The notes below the pieces were generated by a model. It had not been told where the DNA came from, ran no database searches, and saw only the letters and a list, made by a program, of their open reading frames with translations. From the IMG/VR virus record IMGVR_UViG_2671180294_000016, positions 1 through 5,742 of that record: DNA of 5,742 nucleotides, one strand, 5' to 3'. This DNA is from a virus. Lineage: Duplodnaviria > Heunggongvirae > Uroviricota > Caudoviricetes. This document shows, one piece after another, positions 1 to 5,742 of this stretch. The translations under genes and the position numbers were made by a program. The stretch's first letter is position 1. Each line of letters starts with the position of its first letter.

Positions 1-1392
1 ATGGACTTACCTTCTTTACCTTCTCTTTCTTCACTCTTTTCTGCATCTTCAGGTATCAATTGGCGCGATAATCTTTACGACGCTTCATTTCGTGGCGTTC
101 CGTTTTCGGTGGAGAGCGACGAGGGTTCGTTCGGACGCCGCGTTCAGGTCCATGAATACCCAAACCGTGACAAACCGTACACGGAAGATCTCGGGCGTGC
201 CACGCGACGGCTGACGATTAATGCGTATCTCGTTGGTGATGATTACGCAGAGCAGCGCGACAGGCTGATTACAGCGATTGAAACCGCCGGGCCGGGGACG
301 CTGATCCATCCGCAGTTCGGTGAAATGCAGGGCTGTATTGACGGGCAGGTGACCGTTTCTCACTCCGGCACTGAAGGCCGTATGTGCCGGGTTTCATTTC
401 AGTTTGTTGAGAGCGGGGAACTGTCATTTCCGGTCGCCGGAGCTGCAACCGCCAGAAAACTGGAGGAGTCGTCCGTATTCCTGGATGAGTTGATTGAAGA
501 CATGTTCGGCGATTTTGATCTCGCGGGAATACCGGACTTTATTCAGAACGATGTTATTGCCCGGACGACCGATATGCTGGGAACCGTTCAGACAGCTTTC
601 AAAATGGTTAATTCGGCTGTTTCTGCCGGAGCGAGACTACTGCAGGGCGATTTATCCGTCATTCTGATGCCGCCGTCGGTTGCCAGTGATTTTGTGCATA
701 CGTTGCAGGATACCTGGCGGGCCGGAACCCGGCTGGTGGATAACACACAGGATCTGGTGCAGTCCATAACGACAATGTCCGGCATTACGCTGGACCCAGG
801 ACTGGCACCGCGTGCGGTGTGGCCCACAGATTCCGCATCGGTTATCAGGCAAAAACAGCAGACAAACCTTGTGGCTGCTGTCATCCGGACGACGGCAATC
901 AGCGAAGCCACAAGGGCGGTCACTTCACTGCCACAACCCGGAAGCCTGGTGAAAAATCAGCAGGCGGTTGTGGCTGTTGGTGGTTCCACTGAACGTCAGT
1001 CCGATATTATTCACGTTTCTCATCCGGCACTTGACAGCGTGGCAGCCAGCACAGGACAGGATGAGAGAGCGCAACCACCCACGCGGGAAAATCTCACCAT
1101 CATACGCGAATCGCTGAACGCGGCGATTGAACAGGAGCTCAGGCGTACGGCGGATGACAGGCTGTTTTTTCAGCTGACGTCATTACGTACAGAACTGAAC
1201 CGGGATATTCAGGCGCGTCTGGTTCAGACGGAGGAAACCGCAGAGCGAACGCCAGCGGAAGTTCTGCCTGCGCTTGTTCTGGCTGCGTCATGGTACGACG
1301 ATGCGTCCCGTGAAACTGATATCCTGGATCGAAATGCCATCTCTCATCCGGGCTTTGTTCCGGTCAGGGCATTAAGGGTACCCGTCAGATGA
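1..1392 (+). CDS. Phage tail protein, Mu gpN-like DNA circulation protein (contractile-tail/baseplate module)
   Basis: 463-aa ORF starting at ATG at position 1 with TGA at 1390-1392. Residues ~20-110 (WRDNLYDASFRGVPF...HEYPNRDKPYTEDLGR...AYLVGDDYAEQRD...GPGTLIHPQFG) match my recollection of the conserved N-terminal domain of Mu N-type proteins. Stop overlaps the next start in an ATGA motif. The first ~20 codons are CT-rich and low-complexity, so the true start is uncertain and the gene could be 5'-partial. Confidence 0.75.
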   Translation: MDLPSLPSLSSLFSASSGINWRDNLYDASFRGVPFSVESDEGSFGRRVQVHEYPNRDKPYTEDLGRATRRLTINAYLVGDDYAEQRDRLITAIETAGPGTLIHPQFGEMQGCIDGQVTVSHSGTEGRMCRVSFQFVESGELSFPVAGAATARKLEESSVFLDELIEDMFGDFDLAGIPDFIQNDVIARTTDMLGTVQTAFKMVNSAVSAGARLLQGDLSVILMPPSVASDFVHTLQDTWRAGTRLVDNTQDLVQSITTMSGITLDPGLAPRAVWPTDSASVIRQKQQTNLVAAVIRTTAISEATRAVTSLPQPGSLVKNQQAVVAVGGSTERQSDIIHVSHPALDSVAASTGQDERAQPPTRENLTIIRESLNAAIEQELRRTADDRLFFQLTSLRTELNRDIQARLVQTEETAERTPAEVLPALVLAASWYDDASRETDILDRNAISHPGFVPVRALRVPVR

Positions 1393-2465
1393 ATGATACC
1401 GTTTTACTTCGGGTTTCCGGTCGCGAATGGGGCGGCTGGACATCCGTCCGTATCAGTGCGGGCATTAACCGTATTGCCCGGGATTTTAATGTTGCCATTA
1501 CCACCCGCTGGCCCGGAAGCCGGGATTATCAACCCCGGATAAAAAATGGTGAGCTGGTTGAAGTGCTTATCGGGGATGAGCCTGTGCTCACCGGATATGT
1601 GGAGGCACTACCGCTTCGTTATGACGCCAGCAGCGTCAGCATGGGAATTGTCGGGCGAAGCAAAACAGCCGATCTGGTTGACTGCTCTGCTTTGCCACTC
1701 CAGCAGAGCGGAAAAAACCTGCTCAGAATAGTCAGTGAACTGGCTGCGCCATTTGGCATCACCGTTGTTGATGCTGGCGTGCCGCAGACAGCGGTGATTG
1801 ATGCCCAGCCGGAACACGGCGAAACCGTTGCCGATTGTCTTAACCGGTTACTGGGGCAGGTTCAGACGCTGGCTTATGACGATGAATGCGGGCGACTGGT
1901 TCTGGGAAAACCCGGAACAGGTAAAGCGGCGACGGCGCTGGTGCTGGGAGAGAATATTCTTTCCTGTGACACGGAAAGAAGCATCAGAGAGCGGTTTTCT
2001 GAATATCAGGTCAGTGGGCAGCGCCCGGGCAACGACGATGATTTTGGTGAGGCCACCATTGCCGCAATACGTCAGACCATTCAGGACAGTGGCGTGACCC
2101 GTTATCGCCCTTTGTTGATTCAGCAGTCAGGCACAGCAACGACAGCAACCTGTAAGGCCCGTTGTGAATTTGAAGCGCGCCAACGGGCTGCGCTTACCCG
2201 TGAGACAACATATACGGTTCAGGGCTGGCGGCAGGGCAGTGGCGCGTTATGGCGTCCGGGGTTATCTGTCATCGTTTTCGACCCGCTGAATAATTTTGAT
2301 AATGATGAACTGGTGATCGCAGAAGTTACCTATAACCAGGACGACCGGGGCACGACGACTGAATTACGGGTTGGCCCGGCAGATGCTTATCTCCCCGAGC
2401 CTGTTACCGCCAGGAAGAAAAAAATGTTGAGGAGGATTTCTGATGAACGGGTTTTCTCTTCGTAA
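1389..2465 (+). CDS. Phage tail/baseplate hub protein, Mu gpP-like (late control D family)
   Basis: 358-aa ORF; ATG at 1389 overlaps the upstream stop by 4 bp (translational coupling). Its position between the N-like and V-like genes and its size fit the Mu-type baseplate order N-P-Q(gp45)-gp46-gp47. Family assignment is by position and general similarity, not by a run alignment. Confidence 0.7.
   Translation: MNDTVLLRVSGREWGGWTSVRISAGINRIARDFNVAITTRWPGSRDYQPRIKNGELVEVLIGDEPVLTGYVEALPLRYDASSVSMGIVGRSKTADLVDCSALPLQQSGKNLLRIVSELAAPFGITVVDAGVPQTAVIDAQPEHGETVADCLNRLLGQVQTLAYDDECGRLVLGKPGTGKAATALVLGENILSCDTERSIRERFSEYQVSGQRPGNDDDFGEATIAAIRQTIQDSGVTRYRPLLIQQSGTATTATCKARCEFEARQRAALTRETTYTVQGWRQGSGALWRPGLSVIVFDPLNNFDNDELVIAEVTYNQDDRGTTTELRVGPADAYLPEPVTARKKKMLRRISDERVFSS
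2429..2435 (+). promoter_or_regulatory. Shine-Dalgarno sequence (GAGGAGG) for the gp45-like gene
   Basis: GAGGAGG lies 7 nt upstream of the ATG at 2443, inside the 3' end of the preceding ORF. This supports 2443 as the real start and an internal re-initiation site. Confidence 0.6.
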
Positions 2466-2976
2466 TCTGATTTCCCGGGCTGTCATCACGGCGGTGGATT
2501 CCGCCAGAAAGTGTCAGTCTGTAGGGTTGAAAATGATAGCCGGAGATCAGAAACAACACGTTGAGCACCTTGAACCTTATGGTTTTACATCTGCCGCACA
2601 GAACGGTGCTGAGGGCGTTGCTTTATTTCCGGCGGGCGATCGTTCTCATGGTGTGGTTGTGGTCGTGGCTGACAGACGTTACCGGCTGAAAGGACTGAAA
2701 CGTGGGGAAGTGGCGCTTTATGACGATCTGGGACAGTCCGTTGTCCTGACCCGTTCCGGTATTGTGGTGGACGGGGCCGGGAAGGCCATAATTTTTAAAA
2801 ACGCGCCTAAAGCGCGCTTTGAAATGCCAGTCGAATCCACCGCCGATATTACTGACAATTGCGACAGTGGCGGACTCAGCATGCAGCAAATGCGGCAGGC
2901 CTACAATGCCCACAAACATACCGAAAATGGTGATGGTGGCGGGATCACTGACACGCCGGATCAACCGATGGGCTGA
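2443..2976 (+). CDS. Baseplate assembly protein V-like / Mu gp45-like baseplate spike
   Basis: 177-aa ORF with a strong SD and a 23-bp overlap with the upstream gene. Motifs EPYGFTSAAQNGAEGVALFPAGDRSHGVVVVVADRRYR...GEVALYD resemble the gpV/gp45 spike family as I recall it. Confidence 0.75.
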   Translation: MNGFSLRNLISRAVITAVDSARKCQSVGLKMIAGDQKQHVEHLEPYGFTSAAQNGAEGVALFPAGDRSHGVVVVVADRRYRLKGLKRGEVALYDDLGQSVVLTRSGIVVDGAGKAIIFKNAPKARFEMPVESTADITDNCDSGGLSMQQMRQAYNAHKHTENGDGGGITDTPDQPMG

Positions 2977-2981
2977 AAATC

Positions 2982-3392
2982 ATGATGATTAATGTTAACG
3001 GGCGACCCGTGTCGACCGGGGCTTCGATCGACCTTCTGACGCGTGCTGTGATTATTTCGCTTTTTACATGGCGGCGTGCCGGGCGTGATGATGCACCACG
3101 GATATTTGGATGGTGGGGGGATACCTGGCCTGCGGTTCAGAATGATCGCACGGGGTCGCGTTTGTATCTGTTGCGACGCAGCAAGCTGACAAATAAAACC
3201 CCGCAGCTTGCCAGAGATTATGTCCGTGAGGCGCTGGCGTGGATGGTGGAGGATGGTGTTGCTTCCCGTCTTGATATTAACGCTGTCCGGACCGGGACAG
3301 ACTCGCTGGCACTTGCCATTACCATTTACCAGCGTGACGGCAATATTCACAACATTATTTTTGATGATATCTGGAGTGAACTGAATGGCTGA
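2982..3392 (+). CDS. Mu gp46-family baseplate protein
   Basis: 136-aa ORF starting at ATG 2982 (or 2985), 5 bp after the upstream stop. Its size and position between the V-like and J-like genes fit the GP46 family. The SD is weak. Confidence 0.65.
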   Translation: MMINVNGRPVSTGASIDLLTRAVIISLFTWRRAGRDDAPRIFGWWGDTWPAVQNDRTGSRLYLLRRSKLTNKTPQLARDYVREALAWMVEDGVASRLDINAVRTGTDSLALAITIYQRDGNIHNIIFDDIWSELNG

Positions 3393-3978
3393 CAGTCAGT
3401 TTTATCGCCCCGGCCTCCCGCAACTTATTTCTATGATCCGGAGCGATTTATTAACCCGCTTTGAGCAGGATACGCTGCTTCGTCGTATGGATGCGGAAGT
3501 GTATGCCCGTGTACAGGCTGCAGCCGTACACACGTTGTACGGGTATATCGATTATCTTGCCAGAAATCTGTTACCGGACGTGTGTGATGAAGACTGGCTG
3601 TACCGGCACGCCAGAATCAAACGCTGCCCGCGAAAAGAAGCGGTGGCAGCCCGGGGATTTGTGCGCTGGGATGGCGTAGAGGGGACGCCGGTATTGCCAG
3701 CGGGAACGCAGATCCAGCGTGATAATCAGGTGACCTTTACCACGACGGCGACGGTGACCGCAGCCGATGGTCTTCTCCGGGTGCCTGTTGTGGCAGACGA
3801 ACCGGGATCGGCGGGGAATACGGATGATGGTATTGCCATGCAACTGGGAACACCCGTCAGTGGTCTGCCGTCCACAGGGTACGCTGACACCATTACAGAC
3901 GGTGAAGATATTGAAAATCTGGAAATATGGCGTGCCCGCGTTATGGAACGTTATTACTACATTCCACAGGGGGGCGCA
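3385..3978 (+). pseudogene. Baseplate J-like (Mu gp47-like) gene, 3'-truncated by IS1 insertion
   Basis: ATG at 3385 overlaps the upstream stop by 8 bp, with GGAGTG 6 nt upstream. The N-terminal motif RRMDAEVYARVQAAAVHTLYGYIDYLARNLLPD is typical of baseplate J-like proteins. Native coding stops at 3978, about 198 codons, against roughly 350 expected. The 224-aa ORF in the track (to 4059) gets its last ~27 residues from read-through into IS1. Confidence 0.75.
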
Positions 3979-4324
3979 GGTAATGACTCCAACTTATTGA
4001 TAGTGTTTTATGTTCAGATAATGCCCGATGACTTTGTCATGCAGCTCCACCGATTTTGAGAACGACAGCGACTTCCGTCCCAGCCGTGCCAGGTGCTGCC
4101 TCAGATTCAGGTTATGCCGCTCAATTCGCTGCGTATATCGCTTGCTGATTACGTGCAGCTTTCCCTTCAGGCGGGATTCATACAGCGGCCAGCCATCCGT
4201 CATCCATATCACCACGTCAAAGGGTGACAGCAGGCTCATAAGACGCCCCAGCGTCGCCATAGTGCGTTCACCGAATACGTGCGCAACAACCGTCTTCCGG
4301 AGACTGTCATACGCGTAAAACAGC
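3979..4324 (-). mobile_element. IS1 insertion sequence, partial (terminal inverted repeat through ~346 bp, then gap)
   Basis: 3979-4001 GGTAATGACTCCAACTTATTGAT is the IS1 terminal inverted repeat. The following sequence matches the IS1 interior as I recall it and encodes the InsB C-terminus on the minus strand. The element continues into the N-run, so its other end is not visible. Confidence 0.95.
3994..4324 (-). CDS. insB: IS1 transposase InsB, C-terminal fragment (5' part lost in gap)
   Basis: Minus-strand translation ...[109 protein letters not shown] matches the InsB C-terminus; stop is the reverse complement of 3994-3996. The 133-aa ORF in the track (3994..4395) is a chimera spanning the N-gap. 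Confidence 0.9.
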
Positions 4325-4335
4325 NNNNNNNNNNN
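4325..4335. other. Assembly gap (11 N) joining IS1 interior to integrase interior
   Basis: A literal run of 11 n. The left flank is internal IS1 sequence and the right flank is mid-gene integrase sequence, so an unknown amount of DNA is missing. Confidence 0.98.
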
Positions 4336-4336
4336 G

Positions 4337-5008
4337 AAAAACACAATGGCAGGATCAATGCGTTCTGTGTTGTCTGATATGTTTCGCGAGGCCATTGTTG
4401 AAGGACGTATATCTCAAAATCCAGTCACGCCAACAAGAGCACCGAAAATAGTAGTTACAAGAGAACGACTGAAACTAAAGATATACAACTGCATCAGGGA
4501 GGCAGCAGATCAACTTCCGGCATGGTTCCCATTAGCTATGGATTTAGCCCTTGTAACAGGACAACGTCGCGAAGACATAACGAATATGCGGTTCAGTGAT
4601 ATTTATGATGATCGTCTCCACGTCAGGCAAATTAAGACAGGAATGATGATTGCTATCCCCCTGTCACTCAGCCTTCCTGTCGCTGGTCTACGGCTTGGTA
4701 CAGTAGTTGAACGATGCCGCCTGGTAAGCCGGGGAGATTATCTAATCAGTGCCGGGATTAGAAAAAACAGCCCTGACGGCAGCATTCACCCGGATGGCCT
4801 GACAAAAAAATTTGTCGCAGCCAGAAAATTCACAGGTATCCAGTTCAGTGAAAACCCACCAACTTTTCACGAGATCAGAAGCCTGGCTGGACGATTGTAC
4901 AAAGAAACATGTGGAGAAGAATTTGCTCAGCGTCTACTTGGCCACACATCGGAGAAGACAACAAAAATGTATCTTGATGAGAGAGAAAAAACGTACTTAC
5001 TGCTCTGA
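4337..5008 (+). CDS. int: Tyrosine recombinase, lambda Int family, 5'-truncated at the gap (C-terminal catalytic domain)
   Basis: Frame is open from the first base after the gap. The translation aligns from memory with lambda Int from about residue 160 to the C-terminus ([16 protein letters not shown] / AIP / [14 protein letters not shown] / [13 protein letters not shown]). The catalytic positions R, K, H-x-x-R, H and Y are all present. TGA stop at 5006-5008. The ATG at 4346 is probably not the real start. Confidence 0.9.
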
Positions 5009-5084
5009 TTTTAACGTAAATGGATTGTTAAATGTATTTTGGTTGTGATATAACCAAAAAGACCGGAATACAGAAATTCGAGTA

Positions 5085-5104
5085 AATTTCGGGGAATTTC
5101 GGGG
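5085..5104 (+). repeat. Perfect tandem direct repeat AATTTCGGGG x2 between int and the sRNA 3' end
   Basis: 5085-5094 and 5095-5104 are identical decamers. The position between the int stop and the presumptive att core makes them candidate arm-type recombinase binding sites, which is inference only. Confidence 0.45.
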
Positions 5105-5114
5105 GAGACATTTG

Positions 5115-5127
5115 CAACTAATTGATT
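5115..5127 (-). promoter_or_regulatory. IHF consensus-like site (WATCAANNNNTTR) in the att-proximal spacer
   Basis: The reverse complement of 5115-5127 is AATCAATTAGTTG, matching WATCAANNNNTTR. It sits in AT-rich DNA between int and the SdsR 3' end. A chance match is plausible. Confidence 0.3.
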
Positions 5128-5139
5128 TCAAATGCAATT

Positions 5140-5174
5140 AAAAAAAGACCGAATACGATTCCTGTATTCGGTCC
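5140..5174 (-). terminator. Intrinsic terminator of SdsR (hairpin GACCGAATAC...GTATTCGGTC plus U-run)
   Basis: A 10-bp perfect stem at 5148-5157 / 5165-5174 with a 7-nt loop, followed on the minus strand by 7 T (plus-strand A-run 5140-5146). Confidence 0.8.
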
Positions 5175-5242
5175 AGGGAAATGGCTCTTGGGAGAGAGCC
5201 GTGCGCTAAAAGTTGGCATTAATGCAGGCTTAGTTGCCTTGC
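5140..5242 (-). ncRNA. sdsR: Small RNA SdsR (RyeB)
   Basis: The minus strand reads GCAAGGCAACTAAGCCTGCATTAATGCCAACTTTTAGCGCACGGCTCTCTCCCAAGAGCCATTTCCCTGGACCGAATACAGGAATCGTATTCGGTC followed by a T-run. This matches the enterobacterial SdsR/RyeB sequence as I recall it, including the terminal hairpin. Exact ends are approximate. Confidence 0.85.
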
Positions 5243-5248
5243 CCTTTA

Positions 5249-5255
5249 AGAATAG
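5249..5255 (-). promoter_or_regulatory. Candidate sigma-S-type -10 element (C-TATTCT) for sdsR
   Basis: On the minus strand, CTATTCT ends 6 nt upstream of the presumed SdsR 5' end (G at 5242), with C at -13. This fits the sigma-S extended -10 pattern and the known RpoS dependence of SdsR. No clear -35 was examined. Confidence 0.45.
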
Positions 5256-5329
5256 ATGACGACGCCAGGTTTTCCAGTTTGCGTGCAAAATGGTCAATAA
5301 AAAGCGCGGTGGTCATCAGCTTAAATGTT

Positions 5330-5371
5330 AAAAACCGCCCGTTCTGGTGAAAGAACTGAGGCGGTTTTTTT
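5330..5371. terminator. Bidirectional intrinsic terminator between ryeA/sdsR and yebY
   Basis: A GC-rich stem (CCGCC..GTTC / GAAC..GGCGG) at about 5335-5364 is flanked by A5 upstream and T7 downstream, so it can terminate on both strands. It lies 30 bp past the yebY stop on the minus strand. Confidence 0.8.
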
Positions 5372-5400
5372 ATTGGAAATCAAAAGGCTATTTTAGGTAA

Positions 5401-5742
5401 TTAACAGAGTTTTTCAGCTCGTTCTATAAACGGTGCCAGACTCATTTTTTCGCCGGGATTGTTAGGATCATCAATCTGAATCACCGAAATGGGTTGGGCA
5501 TTGGTCTTCCCACTGGCAACTTCCTTTTGTGCGATATCGTTTAAAGGATACTGCACGAGGGTACTCGGATTAATAACATACAAAGCATTACCCGGTCGGC
5601 AAGTCAGCATCACCTCTTCGCGATTAAACGCCCATTTGTCTTTACCCACTTCAAAACGACTGACGGTAATCACCTGCGGTGCAGCCAGCGCCGCTGCAGA
5701 ACTGGTGAGTAACAGAAACGCCAGAATACTTTTTTTCATCAT
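5401..5742 (-). CDS. yebY: YebY, DUF2511-family secreted/periplasmic protein
   Basis: 113-aa minus-strand [27 protein letters not shown]..., with a typical Sec signal peptide and an A-x-A cleavage motif. It matches E. coli YebY as I recall it, the gene that flanks ryeA/sdsR in K-12. The start codon is at the window edge and the RBS lies outside the window. Confidence 0.85.

Follow-up and report, generated by a model that had tools for sequence, protein, structure and literature searches.

The Stx2e phage phiP27 (NC_003356.1) is a complete phage whose sequence was deposited in prophage order. The first part of its map runs from attL through the integrase gene (minus strand), xis, the early genes, stx2e, and the lysis genes to cos and the head genes, and the second part runs from the sheath and tube genes through the tape-measure gene, the baseplate genes L48–L53, and the fibre genes L54–L57 to attR. 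Its tail genes are located on the plus strand and end at attR, and its integrase gene, encoding a protein of 437 aa, is located on the minus strand at attL. A remnant that shares with phiP27 the gene order circularization protein, hub, V, GP46, and J is present in the closed chromosome HE616528.1, which is that of Shigella sonnei 53G (PMC5447701). In the S. sonnei chromosome, a median of 286 IS insertions was detected, with IS1 as the largest contributor (PMC7373316).

Two other described cases are relevant to this study. As stated in the part of PMC7380047 that cites Balbontin et al. 2008, ryeA/ryeB is a known prophage hot spot, and its attachment site consists of the last 23 bp of ryeB; lysogeny at this hot spot is reported to alter RyeA/RyeB expression. 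In PhiW104-type prophages at this site, the junction coincides with the last bases of sdsR, within ryeA, and the 5′ end of RyeA is replaced. The other case is an assembly effect. In short-read assemblies of Shigella and E. coli, collapsed multi-copy IS elements give scaffold gaps, in which an N run stands between non-adjacent sequences and one of its edges lies in IS1.

The stretch of DNA analysed here, 5,742 nt in full length and referred to as the window, contains a run of exactly 11 N at positions 4325–4335, as the first-pass annotation had observed. To the left of this run is a 346-bp piece of IS1 (3979–4324), and to its right is the 3′ part of a tyrosine integrase gene (4336–5008). Comparison of both flanks with other genomes suggests that the 11 N very probably represent a draft-assembly join of two contigs derived from unrelated prophage remnants in an S. 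sonnei-type chromosome rather than a biological feature. Both flanks were identified, and their contents read, in closed and sister genomes, and the source strain presumably has the same structure. The N run serves as a placeholder for a scaffold gap or join and records no measured distance, in line with the earlier remark that it says nothing about the size of the gap. The sequences that it separates are non-adjacent in all closed relatives, including finished genomes of the same lineage. Two ORFs on the minus strand (3994–4395 and 4236–4358) cross the run, and both contain X residues; these ORFs are artefacts, just as had been predicted for any ORF call spanning the gap. No tRNA genes were found in the window by a tRNA scan.

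The left side of the window contains a phiP27-like, Mu-type baseplate module with genes in the order N-like, P-like, gp45, gp46, and gp47 (J) and with the matching Pfam domains, the Pfam families being assigned from identical products in public assemblies. All five genes are on the plus strand. The first (1–1392) encodes a DNA-circularization protein of 463 aa (Mu gpN-like; phiP27 L48; PF07157 on the identical product), and the second (1389–2465) encodes a baseplate hub of 358 aa (gpP-like; phiP27 L49) with GpP-like Pfam domains. These are followed by the genes for a Mu gp45/gpV-like baseplate spike of 177 aa (2443–2976; PF06890) and a GP46 (gpW-like) baseplate wedge of 136 aa (2982–3392; PF07409), and by the 5′ 594 nt (198 codons) of a J/gp47-like baseplate gene (3385–3978), which is cut by IS1. 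Positions 1–3978 showed 96.7% nucleotide identity to L48–L52 of phiP27 (phiP27 33589–37570), and positions 1–4324 were 100.000% identical to the closed chromosome of strain 53G. The window differs from phiP27 in that J is interrupted by IS1 and an A run in the hub gene is changed by −1, and the S. sonnei remnant differs further in having a second, inverted IS1 upstream. The A run is located at 2419–2425, in the 3′ end of the hub gene, and it was A7 in the window and nearly all S. sonnei-lineage loci; E. coli FDAARGOS_944 (L001) had A8 at this place, and L005 had A6. As a result of the −1 change, the hub gene ends in a few different codons, and its ORF (358 aa versus 351 aa) overlaps the start of gp45 by 23 nt.

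The IS1 in J, which is on the minus strand, opens at position 3979 with its IRR end (GGTAATGACTCC...), and the 346 bp contained in the window comprise the 3′ part of insB and are 100% identical to full 768-bp copies in related loci. The 9 bp that precede it (3970–3978; GGGGGCGCA) are the left copy of the target-site duplication; closed genomes have the right copy past the gap. In the closed counterpart L007, the element is a complete IS1 of 768 bp (L007 10595–11362) with terminal inverted repeats, insA/insB, and the 9-bp duplication, and it is preceded by J nt 1–595 and followed by J nt 586–1083. In contrast to this complete element, the IS1 of the window is cut short by the end of the contig.

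The ORF called from position 3385 continues to 4059 and encodes a 224-aa J′::IS1 fusion protein, which is a unique marker of the insertion. Exact matches to this protein were found in 226 blocks of public assemblies, and the contigs were longer than 1 Mb in 20 of these blocks. In strain 53G, the J′::IS1 site occupies 3,027,726–3,028,400. A scan of the species-representative genome collection for the J′::IS1 junction gave 0 hits. The fusion ORF was carried on contigs of 2–5 kb in 186 of the 226 blocks because near-identical inverted copies of IS1 bracket a 4.4-kb segment at this locus. A 109-aa InsB fragment that ends at the gap (3994–4323, minus strand) was found by exact look-up in 153 blocks, always at a contig terminus, which indicates that the position 346 bp into IS1 is a recurrent break point of assemblers. 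The contexts of these termini were unrelated and included plasmid rep/par genes, gfc capsule genes, mur/fts genes, flagellar genes, and feoB. The IS1 copies in the examined loci were 99.7–100% identical over 768 bp, and the left edge of the gap is thus inside a multi-copy, near-identical element. The left contig probably stops within IS1 because the many identical copies are unresolvable by short reads. As for the bracketing copies, the 4.4-kb baseplate segment in closed S. sonnei genomes lies between two inverted, 100% identical IS1 elements (L007 5421–6188 and 10595–11362), the upstream one being located between the tape-measure and circularization genes; this arrangement is composite-transposon-like or invertible.

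The continuation of the tail module was read from approximately 20 closed chromosomes with the identical J′::IS1 junction, in which IS1 is a simple insertion and the tail module continues beyond it. In the 10 contexts listed and 11 similar ones, IS1 is followed by the 3′ part of J (Baseplate_J_C), a Mu gp48/gpI-like gene, and fibre genes; the order after the gp48/gpI-like gene is a 346-aa fibre-like gene, a Caudo_TAP fibre-assembly gene, a phage_tail_N fibre gene, and a DUF4376 gene. This agrees with the expectation in the first-pass annotation that a J-like gene is followed by gpI-like, fibre, and fibre-assembly genes in intact relatives. Beyond the DUF4376 gene, nine of the 10 listed contexts contain the tmRNA gene ssrA and then smpB-ratA-ratB, and the distance from the DUF4376 gene to ssrA is only about 200 bp in the closed genomes. 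The same continuation past J′::IS1 was observed in a contig of the viral collection (L018). Neither an integrase of the window's type nor yebY was found within 10 kb of the J′::IS1 junction in the closed contexts examined, and no unknown cargo past J was seen in these contexts. The left contig would be part of a phiP27-like remnant beside ssrA-smpB, with a simple IS1 insertion in J, and would end 346 bp inside that IS1. The sequence missing on this side would consist of the remaining 422 bp of IS1, the 3′ part of J, the gp48/gpI-like gene, two fibre genes, the fibre-assembly gene, the DUF4376 gene, and attR at ssrA, amounting to approximately 5.1 kb, all of which would be known sequence. One closed chromosome (CP044151.1; L009 16200–18741) has, after the fibre genes, an IS3-family element and a different integrase gene (391 aa, minus strand) in place of ssrA-smpB; L009 shows strain-level rearrangement at this prophage end.

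The right side of the window carries the 3′ part of the integrase gene on the plus strand (4336–5008; PF00589), corresponding to nt 405–1077 and codons 136–358 of a gene that encodes 358 aa in full, as aligned with the intact gene of E. coli VL7S7 (L003 14597–15673). Position 4336 corresponds to int nt 405 (the third base of codon 135), and the window therefore lacks 404 bp of int. The first-pass annotation had correctly recognized that the 5′ part of int is missing, and it had placed the break too far downstream, at codon ~160 with a loss of ~480 bp. An attachment-site arm (5009–5138) extends from the int stop codon to the chromosomal junction. Because homology to K-12 starts only at position 5139, at the 3′ end of sdsR and within ryeA, this arm is phage-derived, and the integrase gene is located at the extreme end of a prophage occupying the ryeA/ryeB hot spot. 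The catalytic domain of the encoded protein is of the Phage_integrase type, and the 3′ end of the gene lies beside the attachment site in the 3′ end of sdsR. Rfam matches were obtained for SraC/RyeA (Rfam core, 5136–5280, plus strand, with the prophage/chromosome junction at 5139) and for SdsR/RyeB antisense to RyeA (5140–5239, minus strand), with scores of 179 and 118 bits, respectively. The chromosomal gene yebY (5401–5742, minus strand; PF10709) was identified as an ORF beyond them. The position of the junction and the replacement of the RyeA 5′ end are as in PhiW104-type prophages; unlike those prophages, only an integrase remnant is visible in the window. Phage DNA stands in place of the RyeA promoter and the first ~37 nt of the RNA (window 5009–5373), K-12 ryeA starting 37 nt before the onset of homology.

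In the intact loci L002, L003, and L032, xis, a DUF1187 gene, an AAA ATPase gene, and the genes for Gam and RecE are located directly upstream of int on the same strand. The genes upstream of int are a lambdoid early-left operon, not tail fibre genes, and the right-flank remnant is a lambdoid prophage distinct from the phiP27-like one. In L003, the fibre genes of the prophage that carries int are located at the far end, on the strand opposite to int. The phiP27 integrase gene at attL is a different gene from that of the window.

The right side of the window was 100% identical to two draft contigs, L014 and L015. In L015, int nt 107–404 are present upstream of the base corresponding to window 4336 and are preceded by the end of an IS630 element (L015 1–110). 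In L014, one end of an IS1 is located 22 bp before the int ATG, at the place expected for xis (L014 6488–6823). Among the 24 contigs examined for the int ORF, 23 resembled L015 and continued into int nt 107–404, and IS630 was inserted at approximately int nt 106 in the sister drafts. Since int nt 107–404 are kept in the sister drafts, int is not truncated at the gap in this lineage; the gene is already a pseudogene there, disrupted by IS630 and IS1 at points further upstream. An intact functional integrase gene was not found in the window or the sister drafts, the N-terminal 135 codons being absent from the window and the gene being split by IS630 in the sister drafts. The right contig would represent the outer end of a lambdoid remnant that is inserted beside yebY in the 3′ end of sdsR (within ryeA), and the part missing on this side would be int nt 1–404, interrupted by IS630 in the lineage and with IS1 just upstream. 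A scaffolder or another joining step would have linked the two contigs by an 11-N spacer. The IS1 of L014 was considered as a candidate for the same copy as that of the window and was rejected: it is oriented from IRL to IRR toward int, opposite to the window IS1, and it abuts the start of int, not nt 405. In 137 blocks of assemblies, a 220-aa ORF with an internal start in int (4346–5008) is annotated as a gene.

The first-pass annotation had assumed a single colinear prophage, with gpI, fibres, assembly genes, cargo (possibly novel), xis, and the 5′ half of int hidden in one gap. The order of genes after J in intact relatives is compatible with this reading, and a related E. coli prophage, that of FDAARGOS_944, has cargo after its fibre genes (an ipaHe pseudogene and a SAM methyltransferase gene), followed by the chromosome. 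Nevertheless, such a prophage is highly unlikely, and it is already contradicted by the closed genomes, in which ssrA marks the end of the identical tail module. The tail genes and int share one strand in the window, with the 3′ end of int toward the chromosome, whereas they are on opposite strands and at opposite ends in phiP27, L003, and E. coli FDAARGOS_944. As int of phiP27 is at attL on the strand opposite to the tail genes, the arrangement in the window is not the natural order, and tail genes and int on one strand, with the 3′ end of int running into the chromosome, cannot belong to one colinear prophage. The 3′ end of int abuts the chromosome, so its prophage runs leftward through xis, Gam, and RecE, and not through fibre genes; xis, which had been expected between the fibres and int, is instead located upstream of int, with Gam and RecE, in the lambdoid remnant. 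The two flanks did not belong to the same prophage in intact relatives, where one has its end at ssrA-smpB and the other at ryeA/sdsR-yebY. In K-12, ryeA is at 1,923,066 and smpB is at 2,754,896, and the resulting separation of ~832 kb rests on K-12 synteny. The interpretation in the first-pass annotation is partly supported, and its central premise of a colinear prophage is wrong. The gap had also been thought to leave room for a novel accessory system, and none was seen in the closed relatives; because closed genomes of the same lineage account for both sides, such a system need not be sought. These results call for caution: N runs in IS-rich Shigella and E. coli drafts can juxtapose unrelated loci, and reasoning from gene order across them, such as asking what lies between J and int, can invent hidden content.

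If the join were physically present in the source strain, an IS-mediated rearrangement would have occurred there, in which IS1 or another IS at int nt ~405 recombined with the IS1 in J and fused the two remnants; the gap would then contain nothing but the remaining ~422 bp of IS1 and possibly DNA of other IS elements. Shigella genomes often rearrange via IS copies (PMC7373316; PMC8072062), the region downstream of the tail module varies between closed S. sonnei genomes, as in L009, and it is otherwise unexplained why the right contig begins at int nt 405. However, no IS bases were found at the right contig edge (window 4336), and 23 of the 24 contigs extend upstream from this point into int. 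The IS1 upstream of int in L014 is a different copy from that in J, as its opposite orientation shows. The join was in no closed genome examined, and in a whole-window search of 5,426 complete E. coli genomes it was absent, no record covering it. We consider this rearrangement unlikely. Rather more doubtful is a physical join in which the ssrA-site and ryeA/yebY-site remnants, fused by IS elements, flank a gap with IS DNA and possibly strain-specific sequence. Even in a rearranged strain, the gap would most likely contain only IS DNA, and a real join would add one more case of IS-mediated rearrangement in S. sonnei, a phenomenon that is already well documented.

The right edge of the gap was examined for a cause of its own. 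No repeat, IS, or mosaic boundary was found at int nt 405, and 31 related loci were colinear through this position. A repeat was accordingly not found as the cause of the second contig edge, and in this respect the window differs from a collapsed-IS scaffold gap, its right edge not being inside a recognisable repeat. The two edges of the gap do not overlap each other, and a length of 11 N is unusual for a gap of estimated size. Both observations would fit a library or assembly chimera in which a short adaptor or a low-quality stretch at the junction was replaced by N. The left edge, however, coincides with a recurrent contig terminus, which fits the joining of contig ends better than a random chimera, and this origin is scarcely credible. 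A run of 11 masked bases within contiguous sequence was ruled out, IS1 continuing as CAGCGCTGG... beyond the left edge and the right flank being int. The draft-assembly join remains our preferred reading. A run of 11 N may be the minimum gap length of the reference-guided scaffolder Ragout.

Several other sequences related to the integrase locus were observed. In L032 (reverse complement, 8298–10069), a stretch of ~1.8 kb with an ipaH-like fragment lies between the integrase gene and yebY and contains a single-N gap; this stretch may be a scaffolding effect too. E. coli O121 strain 201805972 (L002 15647–16414) carries an independent IS1 in the 3′ end of the integrase gene, with a 9-bp duplication corresponding to window 4973–4981. 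An integrase gene of the E. coli type together with its attachment-site arm, with 95.8% nucleotide identity, was found at 46302–47104 of PP818812.1, which is labelled 'Actinobacillus phage vB_Apl-pPE4', an unexpected host label.
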